DNA from: a virus
Taxonomy: Duplodnaviria > Caudoviricetes
Length of the DNA: 64,000 bases
Virus record (IMG/VR): IMGVR_UViG_3300050123_000025
Coordinates: 300 to 64,299 of that record
Reading direction: 5' to 3' (one strand)
The first letter of the stretch is position 1, and the number at the start of each line of letters is the position of its first letter. The notes under the pieces were generated by a model, which saw only the letters and a program-made list of their open reading frames with translations, made no database searches and was not told the DNA's origin. Below are positions 1-30,666 of this stretch, piece by piece. The position numbers were made by a program, and so were the translations under genes.

Positions 1-1010
1 TCCAGCACACAGACGGTCTTTGCACCCTTGACAATAAAGGCGATCAAGGTGTATGTCGTTTTGTCCTCGGGGGCTTGGTTGATAGGTCGCTCGCCTTTAA
101 GGGTTGCATGGTATTGGGGCTTGGGTTCTGGTTCGGCAAGTTCAAGATATTCTGGTTCAAAACACCAGTAATAACCACGTTTACCCCCAACTCCTTTGTG
201 AATGCCTGCGTGCCCGTCAATGTTTTCGTTGAATTGTACCAAATAATAATTGTCGCCTACTTTTATAACGGTACCGATTTTGCCAACACATTCGCTTTTG
301 CCAAAATATTCTTTGATGTTACGCACCCGGTCGCCAACCTTAAACGGCTTGTCCTTAACCGGCGCAGGCTTGACTTCCGGCGGTTCGTCCACCACTAATT
401 CAAAACAATGTTCACTGCCACCCCAACCGCTTTGGTTTGGGAAGTCCGCTAGATAATCTCCATATAAATTAGATACATCGATAATAATGCCAATATCGCC
501 TTTTTTAACATCACCCCAACCATGATTTACCGCTATCGCCCGGACTTTATCGCCCACGGAAAACTTATGTTTCGGTAGTTCAACGTAGGGGATTAGGTCG
601 GATTTGAGGTAGTGATCGCCATGGGAGCTATCCTTTTTTGGCCAGCAAGAATAATAATCCCCATTGTCCTTTATGACATATAAATATCCTTGCTCTTTAC
701 CGCCTGCATATCCCCAACTGTTACAGGCTGTTAATAAACTGGCTTTCCTCTTGCTTACCGGGACAACCTTGTCCCCGATTGCAAATTTAGGGGCGGGTTC
801 CGCAGGCTCCAACATAGCATCCGTCCAGTTCCAGCCTCCTTTGTCAATGTCTAGTTCATAGCGGGTATTGTTAAATTGTATATGTTCGATAATGGCTACC
901 TTGCCACGGTATTGAGCCATTTCCGAATCGAAAAAGCAACCATCATTATATTGTTTATTAACCACCAAGTCCGCTCTGACCCTCACTTTATCTCCAACCT
1001 TATAATCCAT
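1..1010 (-). CDS. Phage protein with repeated SH3/KOW-like modules (3' end outside window)
   Basis: Read by eye: ATG at 1010, MDYKVGDKVRVRADL..., later KFAIGDKVVPV and KFSVGDKVRA repeats; not in ORF track. Confidence 0.7.
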   Translation of the reverse strand, partial: MDYKVGDKVRVRADLVVNKQYNDGCFFDSEMAQYRGKVAIIEHIQFNNTRYELDIDKGGWNWTDAMLEPAEPAPKFAIGDKVVPVSKRKASLLTACNSWGYAGGKEQGYLYVIKDNGDYYSCWPKKDSSHGDHYLKSDLIPYVELPKHKFSVGDKVRAIAVNHGWGDVKKGDIGIIIDVSNLYGDYLADFPNQSGWGGSEHCFELVVDEPPEVKPAPVKDKPFKVGDRVRNIKEYFGKSECVGKIGTVIKVGDNYYLVQFNENIDGHAGIHKGVGGKRGYYWCFEPEYLELAEPEPKPQYHATLKGERPINQAPEDKTTYTLIAFIVKGAKTVCVL

Positions 1011-1021
1011 TCCGATTCCTC

Positions 1022-1357
1022 CTATCCAATAATCAGTATTTTAATTAACGGTGCAACAGTCTCCACGAACCAATTAAACAGACAAACGCCCACAATAAAG
1101 CCCCCGATGATTAACCAGGGGCTTAGTGGCTTCCTCCGTATTTTGTTTTCTCGCTTAACCTTGGGCTTGTTTATGCCCAACTCGGTGATTTTAACTCGCT
1201 TGCTTTTGTGGCATGAATTAAATCCTTTGGGTTGGTTGCTTGCCCGATAAACAGAACTTACTCGTTCAATCGGCATGGTTTGTCCCCCTCTCCAATAATC
1301 CTCACATAAGCGGTCTGCGTCCCGAACATCGGCACTTTGCTCGGTGCATTGTACCAA
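1022..1357 (-). CDS. Small membrane protein (true start probably internal, MPIERV)
   Basis: C-terminal hydrophobic helix WLIIGGFIVGVCLFNWF. Confidence 0.55.
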   Translation of the reverse strand: MVQCTEQSADVRDADRLCEDYWRGGQTMPIERVSSVYRASNQPKGFNSCHKSKRVKITELGINKPKVKRENKIRRKPLSPWLIIGGFIVGVCLFNWFVETVAPLIKILIIG

Positions 1358-1665
1358 AGTTTAACTTCATCCTTTGCCAGTTTGTCCGACTTCGCAACCG
1401 CCTGACACTCGCCGTAAATATCAATGTCCAGCAGGGAGTATAGCGGTATTTCGCTTTGGTCGCTGATAATGCAATAACCGGGGCCAAAATCAATTCCTGT
1501 TTCATCTTGGCCGTATTGACAAAATGCCGTGGCGGTGACTTTGATGGGTTGCGGTTGTGGTTCGGGTGCCGGCTTACTGTCTATTTTGTCGGCGTTTAAT
1601 AGGGTTATGGCAAGCAGGGTTAGCATGATAAGCGTGAAGGCGATTCGGAATTGGTTATGACTCAT
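1258..1665 (-). CDS. Membrane-anchored 3D-domain-like (cell-wall) protein, degenerate
   Basis: N-terminal TM, Pro-rich linker, VTATAF...TG...IISDQSEIPLYSLLDIDIYG pattern. Confidence 0.6.
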   Translation of the reverse strand: MSHNQFRIAFTLIMLTLLAITLLNADKIDSKPAPEPQPQPIKVTATAFCQYGQDETGIDFGPGYCIISDQSEIPLYSLLDIDIYGECQAVAKSDKLAKDEVKLWYNAPSKVPMFGTQTAYVRIIGEGDKPCRLNE

Positions 1666-2548: not shown

Positions 2549-3429
2549 TACTTAGTGGCCGGTTGGAGCTTTGATAAGTGGAGATACAACTCGCGCCCTT
2601 GCTCTACCGTCAAATCCTTTAGGCTGCCCACCTTATATTTTTCTTGTGCCAGCGCGGACAGTTCCTCGTGGCTCATACCTATTTCGCCGGCCTTGGCGTG
2701 AAGCGTGGCCATGTTCTTTGTACCTATCTTCTCCGGTTCTATTACTGGCTTGTCCTCGCCCGTATCAGCCCATTTACGTAACAGTTCTCCGTGTTCCTCG
2801 CATAGAACCTCATATTTACCGTCAAAGATATGCGTATTATCTTTCATGGGATTTGCTACATGATTGTCCTGGGATATCATAAGAGTGAGCATACATTCAT
2901 ATTCATAGCCCGCCCGCTGGTCTGCCCCTAGTCCTACTTTTTGAGGTACTTGCTTACCATTTTTTTCCTCTAATACATAAGTATCCTTACCTCTAAGACA
3001 AGATATAATATTAGCCTTACAATACAATTGAGCATCAATGAATTTGTTGTGTCTGGGGGTTATTTTCGCCCAATTAGTGTAGGAGTTGCCGGGCATACTG
3101 GAATGCACTTCTAATAGTCCGCCCTTGCCGCTCCATTCATGACTAGCAGAATCAATAATGATATTGTCGTATTTCTCTTTTTCACCATATTCTATGGCTT
3201 CAATGAACTTTTCCGGTGTGAATGGGGCTTCAATATCCGCTATGTCATAATCAAACTCATCTGCGTAGATATACCCCCTGTCCCCTTCGGTATTGACAAG
3301 CAGGGTTTTACCTCCCATTCCTTTACATAATCGTAAAGAGCTATACGTCTTGCCGCCTCCCGAAGGACTGATTAACGCCATTTTTATATTCAGTTTTCGT
3401 CTAATTGCTTTTTTGGCTTGAATCGCCAA
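2548..3429 (-). CDS. AAA-family ATPase, Sak4-like phage recombination protein
   Basis: Walker A SPSGGGKT, Walker B IIIDS, HEW motif; beside exonuclease. Confidence 0.8.
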   Translation of the reverse strand: MAIQAKKAIRRKLNIKMALISPSGGGKTYSSLRLCKGMGGKTLLVNTEGDRGYIYADEFDYDIADIEAPFTPEKFIEAIEYGEKEKYDNIIIDSASHEWSGKGGLLEVHSSMPGNSYTNWAKITPRHNKFIDAQLYCKANIISCLRGKDTYVLEEKNGKQVPQKVGLGADQRAGYEYECMLTLMISQDNHVANPMKDNTHIFDGKYEVLCEEHGELLRKWADTGEDKPVIEPEKIGTKNMATLHAKAGEIGMSHEELSALAQEKYKVGSLKDLTVEQGRELYLHLSKLQPATK

Positions 3430-4114
3430 TTGTGTTTCCTCCTTTTAATTTTGATGCGAAATTTTTATGTGTTTGTCTGCCATAATAACTTGGAACCGTT
3501 CTTCGATCTATCTCGCTTAACACTTCTTCTAGCGGCAACCCTTTATGGTATCTATAGCGTATTGTAGATTCTTGGATTCTTAATTCTTTGGCCCAATCCG
3601 CTAGGGTTTGTTTCTTGCCATTAAAGTAAATAAAAACGTTTTTACTTGTGTTTGATGCTTGTCGATAACCAGGAATCCATATGCAATTGTCAGGCTCATA
3701 ATTACCATTATTATCTTTTCTTTCAATTGTCAACGAATTGTTATAGCCATTAGTGTAAGCCCAATTTTTAAATAATGAAAAATCCAACCAATTATCATAA
3801 ACCCTAATGCCTTTTGCTCCATAATGCTTATAACCTGATGCGGTAGGTATATAACATCTAGCCTTCATTCCGCCCCAGATGCGATATAATCTTGTATGTG
3901 TATTGCCATGTGTAATGTTTCTTTTCATTAAAGCATCATGCCCCAAACACCCACAGCTTTTTGTTTTTCCGCTTCTTAACGAATTGGATTGAACAATAAC
4001 AATATTGCCGCATTCACATTGACATTTCCAATAAGCACTTCTTTTTATATAGGCTAATTCTATCACCGTGAGTCTACCAAATTTCAAACTAATCATTGGT
4101 TTTATAACGCCCAT
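3401..4114 (-). CDS. HNH homing endonuclease
   Basis: FGRLTV, WKCQCECG, KSCGC, YGAKGIRV, TIERKDNNGNYEPDNCIW. Confidence 0.85.
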   Translation of the reverse strand: MGVIKPMISLKFGRLTVIELAYIKRSAYWKCQCECGNIVIVQSNSLRSGKTKSCGCLGHDALMKRNITHGNTHTRLYRIWGGMKARCYIPTASGYKHYGAKGIRVYDNWLDFSLFKNWAYTNGYNNSLTIERKDNNGNYEPDNCIWIPGYRQASNTSKNVFIYFNGKKQTLADWAKELRIQESTIRYRYHKGLPLEEVLSEIDRRTVPSYYGRQTHKNFASKLKGGNTIGDSSQKSN

Positions 4115-4993
4115 TTATTCCTCCTTTAAACCTAATTCACAAAAGTTTGATACGTTGCAATAATTGAGACATTTTCTCCCGGGTCCTGGTCCGCCTGCCC
4201 ATCTTTCCTCATCCGAACATTCTGCCGGCAGAGTTTCCGTCTGCAAGTGCCACAAAAGGGCGTCACGTTTAGGCAAAAAATAAGCCAGCACGTCATCGTC
4301 TGGCAGGTATGGTACTTCTATTAGATATGCGTTTTTCGTTACGCCTCGGCTCGTAGCGGCTTGAATACCGCCATCCCGCACCGCAATATCAAGGAACATT
4401 TTTTTGATAAGGAATCCGCTATCTTTCAACATTAAGCGGTACATATTAAGCTGTAGGGCTTGTTCGTGTAAGTCTGGTTCGCCCTGTACTGTTTCCTTAC
4501 GGGTTTTCTCTAATCCTTTACGTGGTCCGGACTTAAAGATTTCGCCGGTAGGGATGTTAACCGATTGGTAACCCAAGCAGCGCATTACCTTGTAGCTCCC
4601 GAACGTCTTAGTATCATAAAGGTTGCTATCCTCGTCCATGTAATCAAACGCGCCGGTGATGCCCTCTAGCTCAAGCCGTATCTCGCCCAGTTCGTTGTCT
4701 CCTGTATGCTTGTCCAGCAGGCCATGCGCCTTAGTGCCGATAATGCGGAATATAGCGCCCTGTGGGTCAATAAAATAATCCTCGGTGATACCTAAATACG
4801 CTTCCCGTGTTCCCTTTTGTAGTTGTGTAACACTGGGTTTGCCCTGCCATTCTCGTTGCTCGGCTATCATGCGCAGGGAGCGAAGTGCCATGCATCTGCC
4901 GGCTGGATGTTGGTCTTTAATCCTGCACTCCTTGAAGCATTGCTCAAATATGCAAGTGTTTTCATCTGTACAAGTAAATCCTATAGCTGGCAA
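4115..4993 (-). CDS. PD-(D/E)xK / Cas4-like exonuclease
   Basis: GAFD...YDTKT, QLNMY, C-terminal CxxYC...FC; TTG start after GGAGG. Confidence 0.75.
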   Translation of the reverse strand: MPAIGFTCTDENTCIFEQCFKECRIKDQHPAGRCMALRSLRMIAEQREWQGKPSVTQLQKGTREAYLGITEDYFIDPQGAIFRIIGTKAHGLLDKHTGDNELGEIRLELEGITGAFDYMDEDSNLYDTKTFGSYKVMRCLGYQSVNIPTGEIFKSGPRKGLEKTRKETVQGEPDLHEQALQLNMYRLMLKDSGFLIKKMFLDIAVRDGGIQAATSRGVTKNAYLIEVPYLPDDDVLAYFLPKRDALLWHLQTETLPAECSDEERWAGGPGPGRKCLNYCNVSNFCELGLKEE

Positions 4994-18951: not shown

Positions 18952-19475
18952 TTGTATATCTATGCAGTATTCAGTATATAGACTGCATATTATGCAGTAT
19001 TGACAGTTATTAGGTGATATATGGCTTAAAAGTAATCCGCATTGAACTCATTTAGGATAAACAGTATTGATTGATAGGATTAGTATGATGTGTGCTGCTA
19101 CTGTGATGATAGTATGCTGTTACTAGTCAAGGTTAGCGGCAAAGCCAGTTAATTAGTAGGACAGCAAAGCAGGTTCTAAGAGCCAGCGGTTAGCAGAGGT
19201 AGAGCAGGAGACAGCGGTGCAGGCTGACGGGAATGACCCCCCGTATGCCACCCCTGGGCCTCGCACACCAGCACTATACAGAGTATGTTGTCTGCGCAGT
19301 AAAATATATTTCCCACAGCAACCCCCCCTATGCTTACCTGGAAATAAAAGGAACCCCTATGGGGTAGGCATATTTTAATTATAAAGCATCTTCATGGCGA
19401 GGGTGTTTTTTAATGTCATAAATTGAGGAATTGCCGGATAACTACCGGCCCCCTCTTATATTTAGGAGGGATTTC

Positions 19476-20261
19476 ATGTTAATAGATCATACATTATTTG
19501 GAGTGGTTGACAAGGTAGCCATTGCTATTGAGCGACTAAAGGCGTTTAAGCCACCAGAGGGTTATTACGGCGCATTTTCAGGTGGTAAGGATTCAGTAAC
19601 TATTAAAAGACTTGCCCAGATGGCTGGTGTAAAAGTGGATTGGCATTACTCACTTACTACTGTTGACCCGCCCGAATTAGTTCAGTTCATCAAACGAGAG
19701 CATGGGGACGTGATTATTGAACGACCAAAGAAAACCATGTGGCAGTTGATCCCGCACAACCTAATGCCTCCGACGAGATTGGCCCGCTACTGTTGCCGGA
19801 TACTAAAAGAAGGTGGAGGGGAAGGGCGAGTTGTTATAACTGGAATACGGCAACAAGAAAGTGTTAAGCGGTCAAAGAGACAAATGGTTGAACAGGACAG
19901 GAAAGACAAAACAAAAACATACTTAAACCCAATTATAGACTGGTCAGAATCAGATGTTTGGGAGTTTATAAGGGGTTATGGAATACTGTATTGCAGTTTA
20001 TACGACGAAGACTTTACCAGATTAGGTTGCATTGGCTGCCCAATGGCAGGAACTAAAGGTCAACTAAAAGATTTCACTAGGTGGCCGAAATATAGAGCCG
20101 GATACCTAAGGGCTTTTGAAAAAATGATACAGGAGCAAAAAAAGCGAGGTAAAGAACCAAATTGGCACACGGGCGAAGAAGTCATGGCCTGGTGGCTTCA
20201 AATGTCAGGGCGTGGTGGAATATCGCAATGCAATGACGACCAGACCGTAATGTTTGAGTAA
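19476..20261 (+). CDS. PAPS-reductase-family (PP-loop, Fe-S) protein
   Basis: AFSGGKDS, RYCC, GIRQQES, PIIDW, RLGCIGCP. Confidence 0.88.
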   Translation: MLIDHTLFGVVDKVAIAIERLKAFKPPEGYYGAFSGGKDSVTIKRLAQMAGVKVDWHYSLTTVDPPELVQFIKREHGDVIIERPKKTMWQLIPHNLMPPTRLARYCCRILKEGGGEGRVVITGIRQQESVKRSKRQMVEQDRKDKTKTYLNPIIDWSESDVWEFIRGYGILYCSLYDEDFTRLGCIGCPMAGTKGQLKDFTRWPKYRAGYLRAFEKMIQEQKKRGKEPNWHTGEEVMAWWLQMSGRGGISQCNDDQTVMFE

Positions 20262-21439: not shown

Positions 21440-21775
21440 ATGAAAGGTGGAATTTTAGTGAGCGAGCAAGGCGAAGTTAAAGGTGTTTTTGATACTGAAA
21501 GTTTAGCAAACCTCGTAGGGCAGACAATATATAACCAAGGGAAGGCCAAAATATTCAACATATTAGAAGCTGCAATGCCACAGAATAATCAATTGGCGGC
21601 AACTAAACGGGTTAGTCAAAATATTTTATCCTCTATCGCTAAGGATGTTGCCGACCAACTAAGAGAGGTTCTTGGTGATTGGCAACAGGAAGTAACTGCT
21701 GGTGGCGAAGTATCTCCTGAAGACGAGAAACAAGCTCGTAAAGAATACGAGGAAATTAAGCAAATAATTAGATAA
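21440..21775 (+). CDS. Hypothetical protein flanked by terminators
   Basis: Open ORF between repeated terminator units. Confidence 0.65.
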   Translation: MKGGILVSEQGEVKGVFDTESLANLVGQTIYNQGKAKIFNILEAAMPQNNQLAATKRVSQNILSSIAKDVADQLREVLGDWQQEVTAGGEVSPEDEKQARKEYEEIKQIIR

Positions 21776-21989
21776 CCGGCTAGTCCTTGTCGGTAATTTT
21801 AAACAGATAAACACACCGTTTCTTTGAGGCGGTTTTTTAATGAGGATTTTTAATGAGGAGTTGACGGATTGAAGCAGATTTACAAGCGTGAATATATAGA
21901 ATTTTTACGAGCTGGGGTGAAAGTCGCGAGAACTAAAAACCGCTTCTGGTTAATTGATTCGAGAAAAGGATATTGAGGGAGGAAGTTAG

Positions 21990-22379
21990 ATGAAACCTTT
22001 GAAAATATTTATATCAGCTCCGTTATCTAACGGTGGGCAGGCTGATAATGAAACTATGATGGCTAACATGGAAAAGGCAGTTCTGGCAGGAATTGAGTGT
22101 ATTAAGAAAGGGCAATATCCGTTCATTCCGCACCTTCACCTGTTCACTCACACATTAGCGGAGTCGCAGGGATTAGAGATACCCTGGCAGACGTGGATGG
22201 ATATTGATGATGCGTTCTTACATTGTTGTGATGCTATCTTATGTCTCGGTAGTAGCAAAGGAAGCAATATTGAGTTATCGGTAGCAAGGGACATGAAGAT
22301 ACCAATTTATTATTCAGTTGATGAAGTGCCGGATTTTAAATCATTCGTGGTGAGTTCGTTCGAGGATAGTCCATATTGA
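21990..22379 (+). CDS. DUF4406/nucleoside-deoxyribosyltransferase-like protein
   Basis: IFISAPLS, PFIPH, CDAILCLGSSKGSNIE. Confidence 0.7.
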   Translation: MKPLKIFISAPLSNGGQADNETMMANMEKAVLAGIECIKKGQYPFIPHLHLFTHTLAESQGLEIPWQTWMDIDDAFLHCCDAILCLGSSKGSNIELSVARDMKIPIYYSVDEVPDFKSFVVSSFEDSPY

Positions 22380-22401
22380 ACTAGTAAGTAATCCTTACTA
22401 G

Positions 22402-23712
22402 TTGGAGGGGGGAGAGCCAATTAACAGATTAACTAGAGAATGCCTTGACTTGTATCTTAGCGGAAAACAGAACAAAGAGATTGCCGAGATAATTAGTAAG
22501 AAATATGCCGAACATTTCATATCAGCGCAAATACACGATAGGATTAAAAACTGCGCTGAATACCAGATGTATAACAGAGCGAGAAGGGGTGAGATTGAGC
22601 CGCCACAAGGTAAAGTTAGTTTTGAATATAAGGCCAACGGTGACAGCATATCGGAACGCATTATCGAGATAAGTCAAGCAGAAGAAATAACCCCCGAATT
22701 AATGATGAAAAAACATGGGTTAGTACCGCATTTATGGGAAGTCATAGCATATCGCAACAATTATTGGCAGGTTCAAAAGAAGGGCGGTAAAAGACTTACC
22801 CTTTATCAATCAAGACTAACCGTAAAACCAAGAAAACAGGGTTTGTCATTAGATGCGATAGATGAGCATTTTAAGGAATTAGACAGAAGGTTTGAACCCA
22901 TAAAGCCAATGAATTTCCATCCTAATAAGATAGTGAAACGCAATCGTATGGCAGAAGTAAATATTGCCGACCTCCATTTCGGTAAGATGTGCTGGCATGG
23001 GGATACGGGCAATAATTTTGATTATAAAATAGCGATGCAGGTTTTTAAGGACTTAATTGAACGAATTTATATTGAATTACCAAGGGATTTGGATTACATA
23101 ACTTTTGTTTGGGCAAATGACTTTTTTAATTGCGATGGGATAAATAACGCAACCACGGCAGGAACCCCGCAAAGTGTAGATATTCGTTGGCAGAAGTTAT
23201 TTAACAAAGGTGTAGAAATGCTAGTGCAAGCCATTACCTTGTTTTCGGAAATTGCACCTATTGAAACATTCTATACCGCTAGTAACCACGATGAATTGAC
23301 AGGGTATCATGCTCTTAAATATCTGGAAGCGTGGTTTAGAAAAGATAGTGATATTGAGATTGACACTTCGCCAATGGCTAGGAAATATATGCTTTACGGC
23401 AATACGTTACTGGGATTCACTCATGGCGATAAAGAAAAGCCTAATAGGTTGTCATCATTAATGCCTATTGAAGCGAAGGAAATGTGGGGTAAGGCAAAAT
23501 TCAGGGAGATGCACACAGCGCATTTACATTCTGAACATATGATTGAGGAAATTAATGGCGTGATTGTCAGAAGGATTGCATCGCCAACAGCAACCGATAA
23601 TTGGCATTACACTTCGGGTTATGTTGGAGCAGTTCGAAAGGCCCAAACTTTTATTTACGATAAAGAGATGGGATTAACAAATATAATTAATACGCCTGTT
23701 TTGGATTATTAA
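22402..23712 (+). CDS. HTH + calcineurin-like metallophosphoesterase
   Basis: ADLHFG, NDFF, SNHD, THGD, AHLH. Confidence 0.82.
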   Translation: MEGGEPINRLTRECLDLYLSGKQNKEIAEIISKKYAEHFISAQIHDRIKNCAEYQMYNRARRGEIEPPQGKVSFEYKANGDSISERIIEISQAEEITPELMMKKHGLVPHLWEVIAYRNNYWQVQKKGGKRLTLYQSRLTVKPRKQGLSLDAIDEHFKELDRRFEPIKPMNFHPNKIVKRNRMAEVNIADLHFGKMCWHGDTGNNFDYKIAMQVFKDLIERIYIELPRDLDYITFVWANDFFNCDGINNATTAGTPQSVDIRWQKLFNKGVEMLVQAITLFSEIAPIETFYTASNHDELTGYHALKYLEAWFRKDSDIEIDTSPMARKYMLYGNTLLGFTHGDKEKPNRLSSLMPIEAKEMWGKAKFREMHTAHLHSEHMIEEINGVIVRRIASPTATDNWHYTSGYVGAVRKAQTFIYDKEMGLTNIINTPVLDY

Positions 23713-23995
23713 GGTTGCAATAATTCGCTTTTGGGAGCCTTATAGAAGGTTGGATAGCCGGGTGTGGAGTGGCGAAGTGAATTTTAAGGGGTGATTCAAT
23801 TGGAAAGATCGCGAGCGTATTTGCCATAGTGATTTTATCATATATGATCTACCTGGTGTTGACCGGGGAGAAGTAAGTTTGGTAACAGATACCCGAAAGG
23901 TATTCGATTATATGGAGGCTCCCTATCCTTGTCGAAAGGCTAAAGTTCATAGACGTTGCGCCTGCGGCTGTAAGGGAGAAAAGGCGTACAATTTA

Positions 23996-24136
23996 TGAGT
24001 GGTGGCGGAATAGGTAGACGCTAACCCCGACTTGCTCCGTGTTCGGGGATATGAGGAGAGTTAACGGTGTGCGTAGAACCTTCCGAGATGAAGCAAAACT
24101 ATACTCTATGTAAGGTGTAAATCCTTACCCACTCAC
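23996..24136 (+). ncRNA. tRNA-like RNA with expanded central domain
   Basis: TGAGTGG/CCACTCA acceptor, GCG-GAATAGGTAGA-CGC D-arm, GTAAGG-TGTAAAT-CCTTAC T-arm, about 88-nt core. Confidence 0.7.
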
Positions 24137-24237
24137 AAATTCTTACTCGACTGAAACATACTCAAATTAAATAAACATGCTCACGAACGCCTGAATTGGG
24201 GTGTTCTTTTACTTGACGGTCAGTTGACTAGTCAAAG

Positions 24238-26931
24238 GTGGTGATAAATATAGCAACCGCACAAGCTAGGGCTAAATCAAAATCTAAAAACAAAATAGAC
24301 ATACCCTGGAAACCACAGGATAGGCAATTAACCTTTCTAAGGGCTTGCGGGATGTCGCACCCTTTTGATGGTGGAGGACCAAAGCCGCCGGTTGCTGTAT
24401 TTATTGGCTATGGTGGAGCGGCGGGCGGCGGAAAATCGGACTCTCTTGTAGGCGTAGCGGTGATTGCAGGTTTGACATTTCCGGGCATTAACATTGGTCT
24501 TTTTAGGCGTACCTACTCGCAGTTAGAAGGACCGGGGGGTATCATCTTAAGAAGTCAAGAATTGATGGCTGGTTGGGCTTCTTATAACGGTGGTATGCGT
24601 AGATGGACAATGCCTAATGGGTCTTTGCTACAGTTCTGCCATTGCGAAAATGAAAACGATGTTTATAATTATCAATGTTTTACACCGGACACGGAGGTAT
24701 TGACACTTGACGGTTTTAAATTCGTATCTGCTGTAAAAGTAGGGGAAATGATAGCAACCATGAATCCTGAAACTAGGATAATGGAATATAAGCCAGCAAG
24801 TAAAGTGTATAAATATCATTTTGATGGAGAGTTGGTTGTGTCCGATAGTAAGCGCAGAGGAGTTTCTTTTGCAGTTACACCTAATCATACTATGTGGGCA
24901 GGAACCGTAAGAAAACCTAAGATAAGACCATTTAGGGCAGATGAATTGCCTAAAGAAGCTGTGTTCCCTACTTATGCAAAATGGGAAGGAAATAAACCGT
25001 TAGAAGTTATCACTTTTAACAAGATTGGCAATAACGGTAAATCTTACTCATTTAAAAGTCAAGATTGGGTAAGATTTTTGGGTTGGTATATTTCAGAAGG
25101 TTCTCGCAGGAATAGTTTAAAGGGTGGATATAGGATATATATTTCCCAAAAGAACGAGGAAGGTAGAAACGAAATTCGTGACCTTCTTGATAAAATGGCG
25201 ATTAATTATTATGAAGGCAATGAAGATTTTGTTTTAGCTTCAAAACCAATATGCGAATATTTGGGGAAATTTGGCATTAAAGCAGATTGTAAAGAACTAA
25301 CGCCTGAGTTAAAAACACTGGATATTGAACACTTGGAAATACTATTGGATTCCTTGGTAGCAGGGGATGGAACTTGGTATAAACGGGGCTATCAAGGCCA
25401 TTTTGTTTCGTCCTCAAAAAAACTTGCTGATGATGTTATGGAAATTGCTATAAAATGCGGATATCGGGCAAGTATTACCGAACAACAAGGTAATGATGAA
25501 AAAAGTCCGTATGGAACTAAGCCAAGATACCATGTTTCTCTTTATAACAAACAAGGGGATACCCGGACAAGGAATATTAAACGTGAGAAATATTGTGGGG
25601 ATGTTTATTGCTTAACCGTCCCCCCACACCACACTGTTCTCATTAGACACAAGGGTAAAACAATGTGGACAGGGCAGTCTCAACAATTCGATATTTTACT
25701 GTTTGACGAAATGACGCAGTTTAGCGGCACTCAAATAAGATATTTATTATCCCGAAATAGGGCCACAAAAAATGGAGTAGTTCCATTTACGGCAGGGGCA
25801 ACAAACCCTGGCGGAATAGGGCATTTATTTTTCAAGGAACAATTTGTAGACCCTGGTGAACCGGAACAAGTTCATGATGTTGAAGTTGAACCGGGTATAT
25901 TTGAGAAACATATCTTTGTTCCTGCGAGGTTAGAGGATAACCAAATACTAGAACGCCGTGACCCTGGATACAGAGCTAAGTTAGAAGCACAACCAGAAGA
26001 AGTAAGAAGGGCCTTGTTGTATGGCGATTTTGATGTATATAGCGGTAGGTTTTTTACGGAATACGATAAGCGCATTCACGTTATTCCTTCCTTCCAAATC
26101 CCCGTATGGTGGAAGAGGGCAAGGAGTCTTGACTATGGACTTGATATGACCGCCTGTATCTGGTGGGCAATATCTGATTCCGGTCAATGCTACGCATATA
26201 GGGAATTGCATCAACCAGGATTAAATTTGACAATGGCGGCAAAGAAGATAGTCGAAATGACCCCGGCAGACGAGCATATATCATACACTACCGCTTCCCC
26301 TGATTTATGGAATCGTCGGCAAGAGACGGGGGCCTCGGGCATGGAATTGATGTCAAAGGCCGGTCTTAAGGGGTTAGTGAAGGCTAGGCATGATAGGATA
26401 CAGGGTTGGAGGGTCATGAGGGAACATTTGCAACCCTACGAGATAATTAGCGAAGATGGCGGGGTTATTCTTGACGAATACGGTAATTCAAAGAAAATGG
26501 CACAGATGCAGATATTTGAGAACTGCAAAAACATGATTAAATATATCCCATTATTGCAACATGACGAACACAATGTGGAGGACGCATCCAATACACCACA
26601 CATCGTTTCGCATATTAATGAAAGTTGTTTAACTGGTGATACCATAGTAAATACCGTTGATGGTGATATTCCAATTAAAGAACTGGTTGGCAAAAGCGGT
26701 CAAGTTTATTGTTTCAACCTTCAAAATAATTCCCCTGTTATTGGGGAATTTTCTTTTGTCCATCTTGCCCGGTCAAATGCAGAGATATATGAGGTTGAAC
26801 TAGAAGATGGGCGGATATTTAAAGGTACACCTGATCACAAGGTATTAACTCAATGCGGGTGGAGGGAAATTCAGTATTTGTTACCGGGTGATGATATTGT
26901 CGAAATCGGTTTACCGCAAGGGGGGATTTAA
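24238..26931 (+). CDS. terL: Terminase large subunit, N-terminal part (cis intein + N-half of split intein)
   Basis: GGAAGGGKS, LLFDE, ATNPGGIGH, LDYG, SPD motifs. Confidence 0.93.
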   Translation: MVINIATAQARAKSKSKNKIDIPWKPQDRQLTFLRACGMSHPFDGGGPKPPVAVFIGYGGAAGGGKSDSLVGVAVIAGLTFPGINIGLFRRTYSQLEGPGGIILRSQELMAGWASYNGGMRRWTMPNGSLLQFCHCENENDVYNYQCFTPDTEVLTLDGFKFVSAVKVGEMIATMNPETRIMEYKPASKVYKYHFDGELVVSDSKRRGVSFAVTPNHTMWAGTVRKPKIRPFRADELPKEAVFPTYAKWEGNKPLEVITFNKIGNNGKSYSFKSQDWVRFLGWYISEGSRRNSLKGGYRIYISQKNEEGRNEIRDLLDKMAINYYEGNEDFVLASKPICEYLGKFGIKADCKELTPELKTLDIEHLEILLDSLVAGDGTWYKRGYQGHFVSSSKKLADDVMEIAIKCGYRASITEQQGNDEKSPYGTKPRYHVSLYNKQGDTRTRNIKREKYCGDVYCLTVPPHHTVLIRHKGKTMWTGQSQQFDILLFDEMTQFSGTQIRYLLSRNRATKNGVVPFTAGATNPGGIGHLFFKEQFVDPGEPEQVHDVEVEPGIFEKHIFVPARLEDNQILERRDPGYRAKLEAQPEEVRRALLYGDFDVYSGRFFTEYDKRIHVIPSFQIPVWWKRARSLDYGLDMTACIWWAISDSGQCYAYRELHQPGLNLTMAAKKIVEMTPADEHISYTTASPDLWNRRQETGASGMELMSKAGLKGLVKARHDRIQGWRVMREHLQPYEIISEDGGVILDEYGNSKKMAQMQIFENCKNMIKYIPLLQHDEHNVEDASNTPHIVSHINESCLTGDTIVNTVDGDIPIKELVGKSGQVYCFNLQNNSPVIGEFSFVHLARSNAEIYEVELEDGRIFKGTPDHKVLTQCGWREIQYLLPGDDIVEIGLPQGGI
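24676..25677 (+). mobile_element. Cis intein (334 aa) with LAGLIDADG endonuclease, C-terminal Gln
   Basis: YQ|CFTPDT, VTPNH, FLGWYISEG, LVAGDG, VYCLTVP...WTGQ|SQQFD. Confidence 0.9.
26626..26928 (+). mobile_element. Split intein N-fragment (101 aa)
   Basis: ES|CLTGDTIV, GTPDHKVLT, GW...LLPGDDI then stop. Confidence 0.9.
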
Positions 26932-27572
26932 TGTCACAAATAATTATTTATGATGACATAAGCTTCTATCAATGTGCAAACGGATATTATTCCAATGGGC
27001 GGGCACAAAGACTACACCGTTATAAATGGGAAAAAGAAAAAGGACCCATCCTACCGGGTTATCATATTCATCATAAAGATGAAAATAAAGATAACAACGA
27101 ACTAGATAACTATGAAATGTTGCCAGGTAAAGAGCATCTTAGTTTACATGGTAAAAGTCCTGAACACATTAAAACGTTGTTGAAATACGGAGAGATGGGT
27201 CGCAAACTTGCGGAAGAATGGCATCATTCTAAAGAAGCAAGTGAATTTTCTAAACAAAATTGGCCCAACTCTCTTGGATTGCATATGAACAAGAAAATAA
27301 TAAAACAATGTGAACATTGTGGAAAAGACTTTGAAACAATAGAAATGTTTACTAACCACGATAAATGGTGTGGCAACAACTGTAAATCAAAGGCAAGGCG
27401 GGCCAGTGGAATTGATAACATAACCAAAACTTGCGTTGTGTGTGGAAAAGAGTTTTTGGGCAATAAATATGAAAAAACACAAACGTGTTCAAGAAAGTGT
27501 GGTTCAGAATTAAGTCGAATAAAGAGAACCGGGGTTAAACAGCCTTCTAGGAGAGTGGTGTCACATGGTTAG
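26931..27572 (+). CDS. Free-standing HNH endonuclease with Zn-finger repeats
   Basis: LHRYKWE...HIHHKDENKDNN...EHLSLH; CEHC/CGNNC, CVVC/CSRKC. Confidence 0.88.
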   Translation: MSQIIIYDDISFYQCANGYYSNGRAQRLHRYKWEKEKGPILPGYHIHHKDENKDNNELDNYEMLPGKEHLSLHGKSPEHIKTLLKYGEMGRKLAEEWHHSKEASEFSKQNWPNSLGLHMNKKIIKQCEHCGKDFETIEMFTNHDKWCGNNCKSKARRASGIDNITKTCVVCGKEFLGNKYEKTQTCSRKCGSELSRIKRTGVKQPSRRVVSHG

Positions 27573-27840
27573 GGTAAAATCAGTTTCCTTTGCAGGAACA
27601 GAGGATACATACGACTTGACTGTAAGGGACCATCACAACTTTAGCATTTGCGGTGGTCTTATTGTTCATAACTGCAGATATTTCTGTATGTCCCGCCACC
27701 CCGAGTATTCGCGCCAAGAGCAGTTATTATTTCCTAAAGGCACGTCCGCGGCTGATGCCGAGCGTATCCGCACGAACATGGACTTCGCCAAGGTGTACGC
27801 CAAGATGCAGAATCAACAGCAGATAAGAGGAGGGTGGTGA
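27565..27840 (+). CDS. terL: Split intein C-fragment (36 aa) + TerL C-extein (55 aa)
   Basis: MVRVKSV...TYDLTVRDHHNF...IVHN|CRYFCMSR. Confidence 0.92.
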   Translation: MVRVKSVSFAGTEDTYDLTVRDHHNFSICGGLIVHNCRYFCMSRHPEYSRQEQLLFPKGTSAADAERIRTNMDFAKVYAKMQNQQQIRGGW

Positions 27841-28044
27841 TCAAATGTTTAAATGGTTTTTAGCCGAAAGTAAAAGCTATATGAATTATGGCAAGAGTTA
27901 TCCAAAGTGGAAGTTTTGGTTACGTTTCCCAGTAGCCTATATTAGATTTAGTTATTATCTAGCAATTAATTAGCCCCGCAACCATCCGGTAATTCCGGTA
28001 AGTTGACGGGGTTTATTTATGAGTAAAAATAAGGAGGAATTGGA

Positions 28045-28287
28045 ATGTCGAAATGCGACAAGTGTATTCACGATGGAGTTTGTTCCCTAAAGGAAAAATA
28101 TAACGGGTTGGTTGAAAGATTGAAAAATGAGTTTGATTTTTCGGAACAAAATGAGCCTTTTAATATAGTGGTGGATTGCCGAAAATATACCAACAAGGTG
28201 CAGTGTTATCCGTATTCTCCGTACTACTACCAGCAACAACAGTGTTATCCGTATCCTGTTACTTGTAACCAATACAAATATATTTAA
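28045..28287 (+). CDS. Cys-containing hypothetical protein
   Basis: CDKCIHDGVC; AAGGAGG RBS. Confidence 0.65.
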   Translation: MSKCDKCIHDGVCSLKEKYNGLVERLKNEFDFSEQNEPFNIVVDCRKYTNKVQCYPYSPYYYQQQQCYPYPVTCNQYKYI

Positions 28288-28329
28288 CCCTGCTTCGGCG
28301 GGGTTTTTCTTTTGAAGGCAGGTGAATAG

Positions 28330-28521
28330 GTGAATAAATTAATAATAACCAATCTATTCCAAAAAGAAGTGACAGAGCATTTAGCGTTGTTAGGTGAACA
28401 CCATTTACAAAGCAAGGGAATAAAACCGGACTCAGAAATTAAACAGGAATATTTTTATATGTTAGAAGCTGCATTTATGGCAGGAGTGAGGATTGAGAGA
28501 GTTTTAAGAGATATAGAATAA
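28330..28521 (+). CDS. Hypothetical protein
   Basis: AGGTGA RBS. Confidence 0.55.
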   Translation: MNKLIITNLFQKEVTEHLALLGEHHLQSKGIKPDSEIKQEYFYMLEAAFMAGVRIERVLRDIE

Positions 28522-28581
28522 ATAACCATACCGCTACGGCGGTTATTTTTATTGCCCAAAAGTAAAGGCAGGTGAAGTTTA

Positions 28582-30666
28582 TTGAGTCTATTAGACACCC
28601 TAATGCGACCCGTAAAGGCGGTGAGAAAGAAATTGGCAGAACGCAAACAGACCAAAATGGCAGAGGACAAAAAGACCGAGTTAATCGATAAATGGAAGAT
28701 TCAGTTTGAGTCCGACAGAAGGGCTAAGAGTCCTATAGATTCGGAAATAAACGAAAACGAAGAATATTATCAGGGCAAACGCACCTTCGGCAATCTCCGT
28801 GACGAAGGCTACAACCAAAGCCGCGAAGTTCGGACAGTCATTAATCTAGTGCGTACACCCATCGAAGCCCTTATTGACCTATCCGTACCTCAACCCGACC
28901 TGTCAGCAGTAGCCCGAGACGATGAATACGCAGTTAAAGTGATGAACAGATATGTTGATTATGTCTGTAAGTCGCAGGACTTAGAGGAAATCAACCTAGA
29001 GAATGAGCGCAGAGTCAAGAAGTTCGGCGGCGCGTTCTACAAAGTGCATTGGAATAACGCCATCAAATACGGCTCGTATGTGGGCGATATAGAGATAAGT
29101 AATCCTCATCCGAAGCATATTATTCCGAACGCTGGCTGTATCAGTATGGATGCTATGGAGCATTACCATCATGTGATTAATCAGACCCAGAAATATACGC
29201 TTCGTCGGTGGAAGGGTGTAACTAAAGAGGACTTGGAAGATAAAGCAATCCTCTACACCGAGTATGACGAACTGGCAGATGGAACCAATAAGGTTACGGT
29301 TGACGGAACCACAACGTCAAGCTCCAATGAGTCTGGTTTAAAGCGATATACCATTATCGAAACGTCATACTTAGACGATGATGGCGATATGGGCAAGCTC
29401 TGGTGGTCTGGTGAGTTACTGCTTGACCATACCCCAAAGTTCTATTGGCACAGGGATGATAATGGCGAACCTACCGATGTTGAGATATTGGAATTAGGAA
29501 CATTAATCAGAACCGGCATAGATGACGCAGGGCAGCCGATAATGAAGGCAATCGAGGAAATATCTACCGACACTGATATGCAGGTGCTTGATGCTGCCGG
29601 CAATCTGATAGGTATTAAAGTGGACTATTACATACCTACCGGCTGGGACATAATCTATCAGCCTTACCTGCCCAAAGACTTATCTTTCTGGGGTACTTCG
29701 ATGATAGACGATATTAAAGATTTGTATGAGTCAATCCTAAAGGCCGTCTATATTCAGGAAGAGTCGTTCCTTAGAGGACGTAAAAAGATAATTACCGATA
29801 ATGATGAGGATGCCAAAAAGATAATGGACCCTGGTACAGAGGTTATTAGACTCGTCGGAACTGTCAAGGAGATTGACATCGGCACCACTATCGACGGTAT
29901 CGGCTGGATAAACTGGCTATGGTCGCAGATACAGCTTATCACAGGAGCGACTAACTCTGCGATGGGCATACATGACCCCGGCGTTAAGTCTGGCAAGCAA
30001 GCTCAATTATATGTGTCGCAGGCTAACTTTAAAGCTAACCTAGCCAGTACCTATAAGGCGATAGCTTATAGGAAACTGTATCGGACGGTAAGCGATTTTG
30101 CTATGGCATTTTGTGACGATGACAGACCGTTTAGGTTAAGCGGTGAGAAGAATAAGCCGGAATATGGGAAGTTCTCTCGGCTGTCAATGCTCCGGGATGA
30201 TAGTGGAAATGTTATCTATCCGAACTGGGATATAAGCGTATCGGCGCAAGCTGGATTCTTGCAAAATAAGAGCGAAGTTTTTAACCAAATAGTTCAACTG
30301 GCTTCACAACATGCTTTTGAACCTACTGCGGGCAATGTCGCTTATCTTAAGGTTCTGCAGAAACTTGGAGTACCATATATGGAGTCTATTGTCAGAGATT
30401 TGGAAGAAGCCTTGAAGAAGCAGGAGGAAATGGTCAAACAACAACAAGACTTACAAAGACAACAGATGAAAATACAACAGCAGAATCAGGGACAGAATCA
30501 GCAGAATCAACCACAAGCACCACAGGCTCAACCGCCTAGCCCGGAAGAAATCATTAAGCAACTTCCGGTTCAACAGCAAGCGCAGATGATGCAGATGTTA
30601 CAGACCGACCCACAGCAAGCAATGGCGATGATTCAAAAAATTATGGGAGGAATACAGAATGGATAG
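28582..30666 (+). CDS. Portal protein (P22-like) with Q-rich tail
   Basis: 694 aa after TerL; YYQG, INLVRTPIEA, FWGTSMIDDI, ITGA...MG...SG pattern. Confidence 0.85.
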   Translation: MSLLDTLMRPVKAVRKKLAERKQTKMAEDKKTELIDKWKIQFESDRRAKSPIDSEINENEEYYQGKRTFGNLRDEGYNQSREVRTVINLVRTPIEALIDLSVPQPDLSAVARDDEYAVKVMNRYVDYVCKSQDLEEINLENERRVKKFGGAFYKVHWNNAIKYGSYVGDIEISNPHPKHIIPNAGCISMDAMEHYHHVINQTQKYTLRRWKGVTKEDLEDKAILYTEYDELADGTNKVTVDGTTTSSSNESGLKRYTIIETSYLDDDGDMGKLWWSGELLLDHTPKFYWHRDDNGEPTDVEILELGTLIRTGIDDAGQPIMKAIEEISTDTDMQVLDAAGNLIGIKVDYYIPTGWDIIYQPYLPKDLSFWGTSMIDDIKDLYESILKAVYIQEESFLRGRKKIITDNDEDAKKIMDPGTEVIRLVGTVKEIDIGTTIDGIGWINWLWSQIQLITGATNSAMGIHDPGVKSGKQAQLYVSQANFKANLASTYKAIAYRKLYRTVSDFAMAFCDDDRPFRLSGEKNKPEYGKFSRLSMLRDDSGNVIYPNWDISVSAQAGFLQNKSEVFNQIVQLASQHAFEPTAGNVAYLKVLQKLGVPYMESIVRDLEEALKKQEEMVKQQQDLQRQQMKIQQQNQGQNQQNQPQAPQAQPPSPEEIIKQLPVQQQAQMMQMLQTDPQQAMAMIQKIMGGIQNG

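Follow-up and report, generated by a model that had tools for sequence, protein, structure and literature searches.

The closest described systems are fractured phage genes, in which a host gene is divided into two open reading frames (ORFs) that carry the halves of a split intein and flank an endonuclease gene. The accessible part of Dassa et al. 2009 (PMC2677866) covers fractured gp41, NrdJ, NrdA, IMPDH, DnaE, ligase and one gp17-like terminase locus, and it offers a gene-breaking model, by which a mini-intein is broken when a free-standing endonuclease gene inserts into its loop. Here we analyze a locus of this kind in a virus of the Caudoviricetes (IMG/VR record IMGVR_UViG_3300050123_000025), using a stretch of 64,000 nucleotides (nt; positions 300 to 64,299 of the record) that we call the window. 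Within this stretch, a composite selfish element has very probably fractured the phage's only gene for the large terminase subunit (TerL) at a conserved nuclease motif, and the element would consist of a canonically split class-1 intein whose N- and C-terminal halves (IntN and IntC) flank a gene for an HNH homing endonuclease.

With the loci in the accessible part of Dassa et al. 2009 (PMC2677866), the window shares a host gene in two ORFs, split-intein halves, an endonuclease gene between them, a phage origin and a break at the usual loop. The endonucleases described there are GIY-YIG or Vsr-like, whereas that of the window is an HNH enzyme with zinc fingers, and the terminase described there is broken at an unusual point that leaves a C part of 122 amino acids (aa), whereas that of the window has the canonical 101 + 36 aa and is broken within the nuclease motif. 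Naturally split phage TerL inteins that were shown to trans-splice, namely GOS-TerL, AceL-TerL and Cat-TerL, figure as characterized tools in the available portion of PMC11766414, and by that description they are set apart from the intein of the window in being atypically split (IntN of 25-37 aa and IntC of 104-115 aa). The preliminary description of this DNA had placed fractured genes mostly among replication genes, which needs correction in that terminases are already among the eight enzyme types in the accessible part of Dassa et al. 2009, and the three TerL tools were likewise already characterized. The case is less novel than that first reading implied because fractured terminases and split TerL inteins were already known.

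Other systems share further features with the locus. As far as the available text tells (PMC6892783), Pseudomonas jumbo phage MIJ3 also has split-intein halves that flank an HNH homing-endonuclease ORF, but the host gene is DNA polymerase B rather than a terminase, and that case is a predicted one too. Out-of-frame and antisense endonuclease genes within contiguous actinophage inteins, together with extein switching, are described in the accessible part of 10.1101/2025.01.02.630785. Homologous IntN, HNH and IntC sequences also lie in the terminase nuclease motif of Lactobacillus phage CL2 and Brochothrix phage BL3, where IntN is 54% and 44% identical to that of the window by tblastn (56% and 45% by alignment), but their inteins sit one step earlier in the motif (H^C-x-D-x-x-RY, with the caret marking the break here and below). 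The C-half is unannotated in CL2 and labelled 'gp3' in BL3, where the HNH gene is only a remnant. The canonical split of about 100 + 36 aa is that of the cyanobacterial split DnaE intein (Npu/Ssp), whose halves come from widely separated genes and do not flank an endonuclease gene.

Our literature search, the coverage of which excluded most subscription journals, returned no paper on staggered insertion points or on terminase inteins that are canonically split and accompanied by an HNH gene. The layout itself, a fractured gene as defined by Dassa et al. 2009, was known already, as were split TerL inteins, though atypically split; what appears to be new is one intein family at three staggered points of one nuclease motif, with the intein of the window at the rarest of them, and an insertion point that would have changed repeatedly. 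Further interest lies in an exact empty-site contig, in a series from mini-intein to split intein and in evidence for a shift of insertion point within one catalytic motif.

Organization of the interrupted terminase gene

ORF1 encodes a terminase large subunit, as judged from its match to PHROG 979 (E 8.5e-39) and from 75% identity to the homologue P0011 over 505 aa once both of its inteins are removed in silico; the Pfam Terminase_6N match is weak (19 bits, under the cut-off of 22). The protein carries ATPase Walker motifs and an RNase-H-like nuclease domain ending in H-x-x-D/E-x-x-R-Y, and the gene in the window is broken between the fifth and sixth positions of this motif (..HINES^CRY..). 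The three ORFs given in the preliminary description are all present (Table 1), that is, a terminase that reads ..SHINES, continues with CLTGDT and TPDH and stops 101 aa past the Cys, a 213-aa HNH/zinc-finger ORF whose start overlaps that stop as TAATG, and a third ORF that overlaps the second by 8 nt and carries intein blocks F and G ahead of CRYFCMSR. ORF1 and ORF3 share a reading frame, with several stops in that frame between them, and the HNH gene (ORF2) lies in a frame different from that of both intein halves.

ORF1 also contains a complete intein, intein-1, which matches LAGLIDADG_3 at E 9e-8 and whose junction is gap-free against P0011, P0009 and P0017. Intein-1 starts with Cys, and its C-terminal residues are Gly-Gln instead of His-Asn. 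The same intein with the same Gly-Gln ending is found in an 813-aa homologue without the split intein (P0014). Inteins with a C-terminal Gln are rare, but they are known to splice.

Table 1. Features of the split terminase locus, in window coordinates
Feature	Coordinates	Strand	Description
TerL N-half gene (ORF1), 897 aa	24238..26931	+	ATPase and most of nuclease domain; intein-1 inside, IntN at end; stop TAA 26929-26931
Intein-1, complete LAGLIDADG intein, 334 aa	24676..25677 (ORF1 aa 147-480)	+	between ..NYQ and SQQFD.., immediately ahead of Walker B
Whole mobile unit (IntN + HNH + IntC), 1047 nt = 349 codons	26626..27672	+	skipped exactly by one contig of run X6
IntN, 101 aa	26626..26928	+	Cys1 (CLTGDT), block B TPDH; matches TIGR01445 and solved inteins
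Shine-Dalgarno-like AAGGGGGG	26918..26925	+	5 nt ahead of HNH ATG; ATG overlaps TerL-N stop (TAATG)
Free-standing HNH endonuclease gene (ORF2), 213 aa	26931..27572	+	HNH core and two CxxC..C..C zinc fingers
Shine-Dalgarno-like AGGAGAG	27549..27555	+	9 nt ahead of ORF3 ATG
ORF3, 91 aa	27565..27840	+	TYDLTV..HHNF..IVHN, then CRYFCMSR
IntC, 36 aa	27565..27672	+	blocks F and G, ends His-Asn; 8-nt overlap with HNH gene end (ATGGTTAG)
TerL C-extein, 55 aa + stop codon	27673..27840	+	starts at Cys+1 (CRYFCMSR..); gap-free against C-termini of P0011, P0015 and P0017

Intein identity, precise insertion and splicing residues

Profile searches agree with the assignment of the two intein halves, as both NCBIfam models score above their cut-offs: intein_Nterm (TIGR01445) reaches 65.9 bits on ORF1 (cut-off 24.5, best stretch 797-871), and intein_Cterm (TIGR01443) reaches 17.8 bits on ORF3 (cut-off 15.6). 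Residues 1-37 of ORF3 also match PRK07373, the model of the cyanobacterial split DnaE-C. Pfam Intein_splicing (PF14890) is divided between the two ORFs, with profile positions 10-92 on ORF1 and 121-155 on ORF3, and when the region was read through in six frames the model scored 49.6 bits, above its cut-off. Compared with solved structures, IntN matched the Npu DnaB mini-intein 4o1r (E 5e-7), the Npu DnaE IntN 4lx3 (E 7e-6) and 4qfq.

The class-1 splicing residues are complete (Cys1, TxxH, His-Asn and Cys+1). Cys1 stands immediately after the last N-extein residue common to intein-free homologues, the Thr and His columns of block B are invariant in a seven-row IntN alignment, and H35, N36 and C37 are invariant in six of six close C-halves. 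Joining the exteins in silico, with both inteins removed, gives a TerL of 517 aa that is colinear with nine homologues without an intein at the site and gap-free at both junctions. In the homologues P0011 (505 aa, 75% identical), P0015 and P0017, the junction sequence is ..HINES-CRYF.., which is the predicted ligation product including the +1 Cys; at the +1 position, homologues without an intein at this site also have Ala (P0009) or Thr (P0014). These alignments show an exact insertion that keeps the reading frame of the intein-free homologues. The claims that the joined exteins restore the terminase motif as SHINES-CRY and that the interruption is a split intein thus hold up, the latter through the precise insertion, the full set of splicing residues and the conservation of the split in relatives.

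A different outcome is that splicing is absent, either because the intein halves only dimerize or because the N-piece alone packages DNA. At the window site, the motif Glu, which we take to be a catalytic metal ligand of the terminase nuclease, stays on the N-piece and only the last 55 aa are separate, and the complex prediction described below speaks of association rather than of chemistry. However, Cys1, TxxH, His-Asn and Cys+1 are invariant in the six close C-halves and the aligned IntN set, dN/dS is about 0.12-0.15 on both halves, and the R-Y with the following helix is conserved in every intein-free homologue examined, which suggests that the C-piece is probably needed in cis. We therefore consider a terminase that works without splicing to be very unlikely.

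Conservation of the split arrangement and the empty site

Were the locus an assembly or sequencing artefact, it would hold one continuous HNH-containing intein, with indel errors behind both changes of frame. With ORF1 and ORF3 in one frame and HNH in another, two compensating indels could in principle fuse them, and in-frame HNH inteins exist in phages, according to the accessible part of 10.1101/2025.01.02.630785. However, all three ORFs recur in the IMG/VR contig L003, a relative about 67% identical with amino-acid identities of 62-72%, in the same relative frames and with the same 1-nt and 8-nt overlaps, and each ORF has its own start and Shine-Dalgarno-like site; these sites are G-rich and positioned as in the window (AAAGGGGGG, then TAGTG where the window has TAATG). 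Contigs of four sequencing runs (X1, X2, X5 and X6) were placed on 26400-27950, and those of X5 and X6, which belong to other studies, jointly span both overlaps with zero inserted or deleted letters. The X1 and X2 contigs are identical to the window and are possibly the source of the window DNA. A protein search with ORF3 returned seven hits, two of which are the window's own; the others are five clusters of 91-95 aa at 65-82% identity, each a free-standing IntC plus C-extein and all starting at the same Met. Furthermore, a gene of the same HNH family is antisense in two related loci (L108 and L061), which is impossible within one polypeptide. The overlaps are therefore genuine, as the X5 and X6 contigs and L003 show, and the indel alternative that the preliminary description had named is almost certainly wrong.

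The comparison of the window with L003 gave dN/dS values of 0.15 for IntN and 0.12 for IntC, which indicate purifying selection on both halves. For the HNH gene dN is 0.29 and dS is saturated, and extein dS is likewise saturated, so no dN/dS is given for them.

The empty site was seen in one contig of run X6, which joins 26625 to 27673 and skips 1047 nt. The skipped stretch is IntN, HNH and IntC to the base, with a 2-nt ambiguity at the joint because both Cys codons share TG. This contig is 151 nt long and of depth 2, and it has 65 letters on one side of the joint, 75 on the other and 12 differences in all; at about 91% identity to the window, it must stem from a relative. Taken with the intein-free proteins, the X6 contig documents both filled and empty alleles of the site in public metagenome data, as homing needs.

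The HNH gene and its link to the split intein

The product of ORF2 matches Pfam HNH_3 (PF13392; E 6e-9, 35.8 bits against 24.8) and PHROG 15471 'HNH endonuclease' (E 9e-38), and a comparison by sequence with solved structures gave no match at E<=0.1. Across seven full-length homologues, H47, H48, D50, N55, N56, N60, H69, H73 and eight Cys are invariant, and the eight Cys form two four-Cys fingers. To locate homologues, we used blastp at E<=1e-5 over the six-frame ORFs of L001-L118. All those found lie next to split terminase inteins, namely in the window, L003, CL2, L061, L108, L007 and L034, in partial form in L004 and as a remnant in BL3, and under the same settings neither L104 nor any of the 77 intein-free loci in the P0112-like lineage gave a match. 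Among these loci, the HNH family strictly co-occurs with split terminase inteins. This co-occurrence and the contig without exactly 26626-27672 fit the proposal that the three-ORF unit homes as one element.

The position of the HNH gene beside terminase genes also fits a protein that is (also) a packaging cofactor of the terminase, as in HK97-like phages, and not solely a homing endonuclease; Kala et al. 2014 reportedly describe HNH proteins as packaging components. Several features speak against this role: the gene sits exactly in the intein break, no homologue was found in the 77 intein-free relatives, the contiguous mini-intein L104 or the empty-site contig, and the gene occurs in either orientation and is reduced to remnants in BL3, L004 and L005 although the intein persists. 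The Pfam HNH_3 match and a genome with terminal repeats also tell against it, and we consider a packaging role highly unlikely compared with that of a homing endonuclease.

Proposed mechanism and viability of the phage

In the mechanism that we propose, the three + strand ORFs would be made from one transcript by coupled translation, a scheme suggested by the way their stop and start codons overlap and by their separate Shine-Dalgarno sites. Translation would give an N-piece of 897 aa and a C-piece of 91 aa, and the N-piece would also have to cis-splice intein-1. IntN (101 aa) and IntC (36 aa) would then reassemble into a HINT fold and trans-splice to yield the 517-aa TerL with a native peptide bond at Ser-Cys, for which the HNH enzyme would be dispensable. 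During co-infection, the HNH enzyme would cut or nick intein-less terminase alleles near the motif, and repair would copy the 1047-nt unit into the cut alleles, which is the homing step. An essential single-copy packaging enzyme would in this way be assembled post-translationally from two proteins, such that packaging should depend on protein trans-splicing.

We also examined potential transcription signals and the association of the intein halves. Promoter-like sites in 21500-29000 are at chance level (22 against 21.0 +/- 5.4), terminator-like sites in the same region exceed those in shuffles (14 against 5.8 +/- 2.2, by consensus match only), and four terminator-like consensus matches lie on the + strand inside IntN (26728-26750). 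No RNA run was found among the sequencing runs listed as containing the stretch. The predicted complex of IntN with IntC has an ipSAE of 0.65, compared with 0.00 for the best of three controls, a value that may reflect likeness to solved split inteins. Of 80 solved complexes, 58 reach the mark used, as do 2 of 110 mismatched pairs; these counts are rough because custom alignments were used. Prediction runs agree in at least 91% of contacts, with a partner pLDDT (predicted local distance difference test) of at least 60, and the predicted interface would involve IntC residues 1-35 and the +1 Cys.

The window comprises nearly the whole of a virus record of 64,299 bases, which has direct terminal repeats and is rated complete. 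Public runs that contain the stretch are labelled as peat metagenome; six runs contain it at half or more of sampled words, and in several runs its word depths are 19-49. Portal and major-capsid matches lie downstream of the terminase genes. Using blastn, we found no match to 24238-27840 among 50,697 phage records. Based on the complete genome with direct terminal repeats and the recurrence in six runs, the phage looks viable. If the gene were instead decaying, the terminase would be dead and the contig a defective or satellite-dependent element, and two inteins in one essential gene are indeed a heavy load. However, the complete genome with its terminal repeats and the downstream portal and capsid matches, the presence of the stretch in several runs at the depths given above, the purifying selection on parts of the locus (IntN and IntC; HNH dS being saturated) and the same layout in the GenBank phages CL2 and BL3, which have named hosts, make such decay extremely unlikely.

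Several points weigh against a functional, homing split intein in this terminase. The spliced TerL is a product predicted by in-silico joining, and the complex-prediction score may derive from solved split inteins already familiar to the model. Taken singly, the intein halves score 32.4 and 24.5 bits, below the Pfam gathering score of 35.8 bits. For the empty site there is one record, 151 nt long and of depth 2, and a joint of this kind may derive from another organism. Finally, the viability of the phage is judged only from completeness and recurrence.

Related loci and the series from mini-intein to split intein

Terminase loci with both intein halves were found in phages CL2 and BL3, in the IMG/VR contigs L003-L007, L104 and L108 and in the metagenome-assembled genome of a Lachnospiraceae member (L034); L061 contains IntN and the HNH gene and then runs off the contig. 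L104 carries a contiguous mini-intein of 125 aa in a single 645-aa ORF at the same site as the window, and the IntN of L108 is 89% identical to that of L104, with the split falling at a loop (..DEILT^AKIVAIRY..). This comparison indicates that the window intein is broken at the canonical point, the loop where endonuclease domains insert. Contiguous mini-inteins are also found in the terminases P0144 and P0216, and P0197 is a GIY-YIG endonuclease fused to IntC. As judged from sequence, the series from mini-intein to split intein fits the gene-breaking model in the accessible part of Dassa et al. 2009. The loci form a series in which that model and a change of site could be tested, as they include empty sites, mini-inteins, split inteins with a sense or antisense HNH gene, degraded HNH genes and three insertion sites.

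By alignment, the IntN sequences of the window and CL2 are 56% identical and the N-exteins 17% identical, and therefore the cassette moved between very distant terminases. Of the 35 records with IntN-like sequences among the 50,697 phage records, just 5 have them in a terminase, and these represent CL2, BL3 and one fragment. A metagenome scan with a C-half profile returned 21 loci, none of them in a terminase by motif script, and all of these inteins lie in other long genes with C-exteins like SHSAAYA..; a genome scan returned three loci, of which only L034 was located in a terminase. Terminases of this type look truncated because the short C-half is easily missed, as in CL2 (unannotated) and BL3 ('gp3'). 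Canonically split, Cys-dependent TerL inteins form a large and diverse family, which provides a pool of candidate orthogonal split inteins.

Several of these loci have features of their own. In L005/L006 (3254-5174), the terminase is split without an intact endonuclease gene, and IntN continues in frame for 140 aa into an HNH zinc-finger remnant and overlaps the IntC ORF by about 140 nt. L004 has a site-A split intein with Ser as its +1 residue and another terminase intein at the P-loop (..GGNR^C...HHN^T..), with an antisense HNH-like ORF of 203 aa inside it (853-1464, minus strand). In L003, a 199-aa ORF (2136-2735) just upstream of the terminase N-half (2892-4367) repeats a terminase-like Walker-A region (..GDAGTGKSWALRRK..), and the ATPase part is closer to P0010 than to the window, which gives a terminase that is mosaic between ATPase and nuclease domains.

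Three staggered insertion points in the nuclease motif

Using the motif as H-x-x-D/E-x-x-R-Y, which is H-x-x-E-x-x-R-Y in the window, we named three sites by cut position. Site A (H^x) is that of CL2, BL3, L004-L007, L034 and the close C-halves P0002, P0003 and P0006; site B (H-x^x) is that of the N-halves P0012, P0039, P0101, P0112 and L061; and site C (H-x-x-E-x^x) is that of the window, L003, P0013, L104 and L108. When 11 C-halves were used in an exhaustive profile search, 5266 proteins were found at E<=0.001. We examined the best 150 cluster representatives, and 83 of these are free-standing C-halves of 160 aa or fewer. When the site was assigned from the spacing between the +1 residue and R-Y, 65 of the 83 fell at site A, 13 at site B and 2 at site C, and R-Y was not located in 3. 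Among short C-halves in the best 150 of 5266, the window's site C is the rarest of the three.

A site-B contig with both halves was not found in the scans made with three N-halves: P0012 led to one intein-free locus, and P0101 and P0039 led to 83 loci with no intein, 19 of which are intein-free by pattern and 64 outside the pattern. Site B is backed by N-halves and by separate C-halves, never by both on one contig. Among the 120 nuclease-region relatives listed, 6 have IntN, 91 fit the intein-free motif pattern and 23 are outside the pattern.

To compare the inteins across sites, we used an IntN tree of 16 sequences and 94 columns, the rows of which are those retrieved and are short sequences; 8 of its 13 inner branches are unsupported. 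In this tree, the site-B sequence L061 is sister to the site-C pair L104/L108 with support of 97/97, and by the approximately unbiased (AU) test the site-C inteins do not form one clade (p about 1e-6). We tentatively raise the possibility, which we hold to be more doubtful than probable, that one family of split intein and HNH gene occupies three staggered points within an eight-residue motif and has moved between them more than once. A homing endonuclease that cuts near, rather than at, the insertion point could place the cassette at a neighbouring Cys-tolerant codon. If this is true, inteins could change site, and so escape resistant alleles, without changing their host gene. Furthermore, the insertion point would set whether the acidic residue is on the N- or the C-piece, and nuclease activity could need splicing at some sites only.

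Additional observations

A contig of 1170 nt from run X2 matches the first 50 nt of IntN (26626-26675) with 6 differences and has different extein DNA upstream, which translates as ..PHELTHS and corresponds to a related site-B intein in another terminase. IntN-like matches also occur in Salmonella S16-like, Proteus PM2 and Campylobacter phages, where the genes concerned form pairs annotated as 'DNA helicase' with 'hypothetical protein' or as 'ribonucleotide reductase' with 'hypothetical protein'; a CPt10 note states that the gene 'has been disrupted', and such pairs resemble further unannotated fractured genes. In the window itself, an ORF with a PAPS-reductase domain (Pfam PF01507, E 5e-24) is located at 19431-20261, upstream of the packaging genes.

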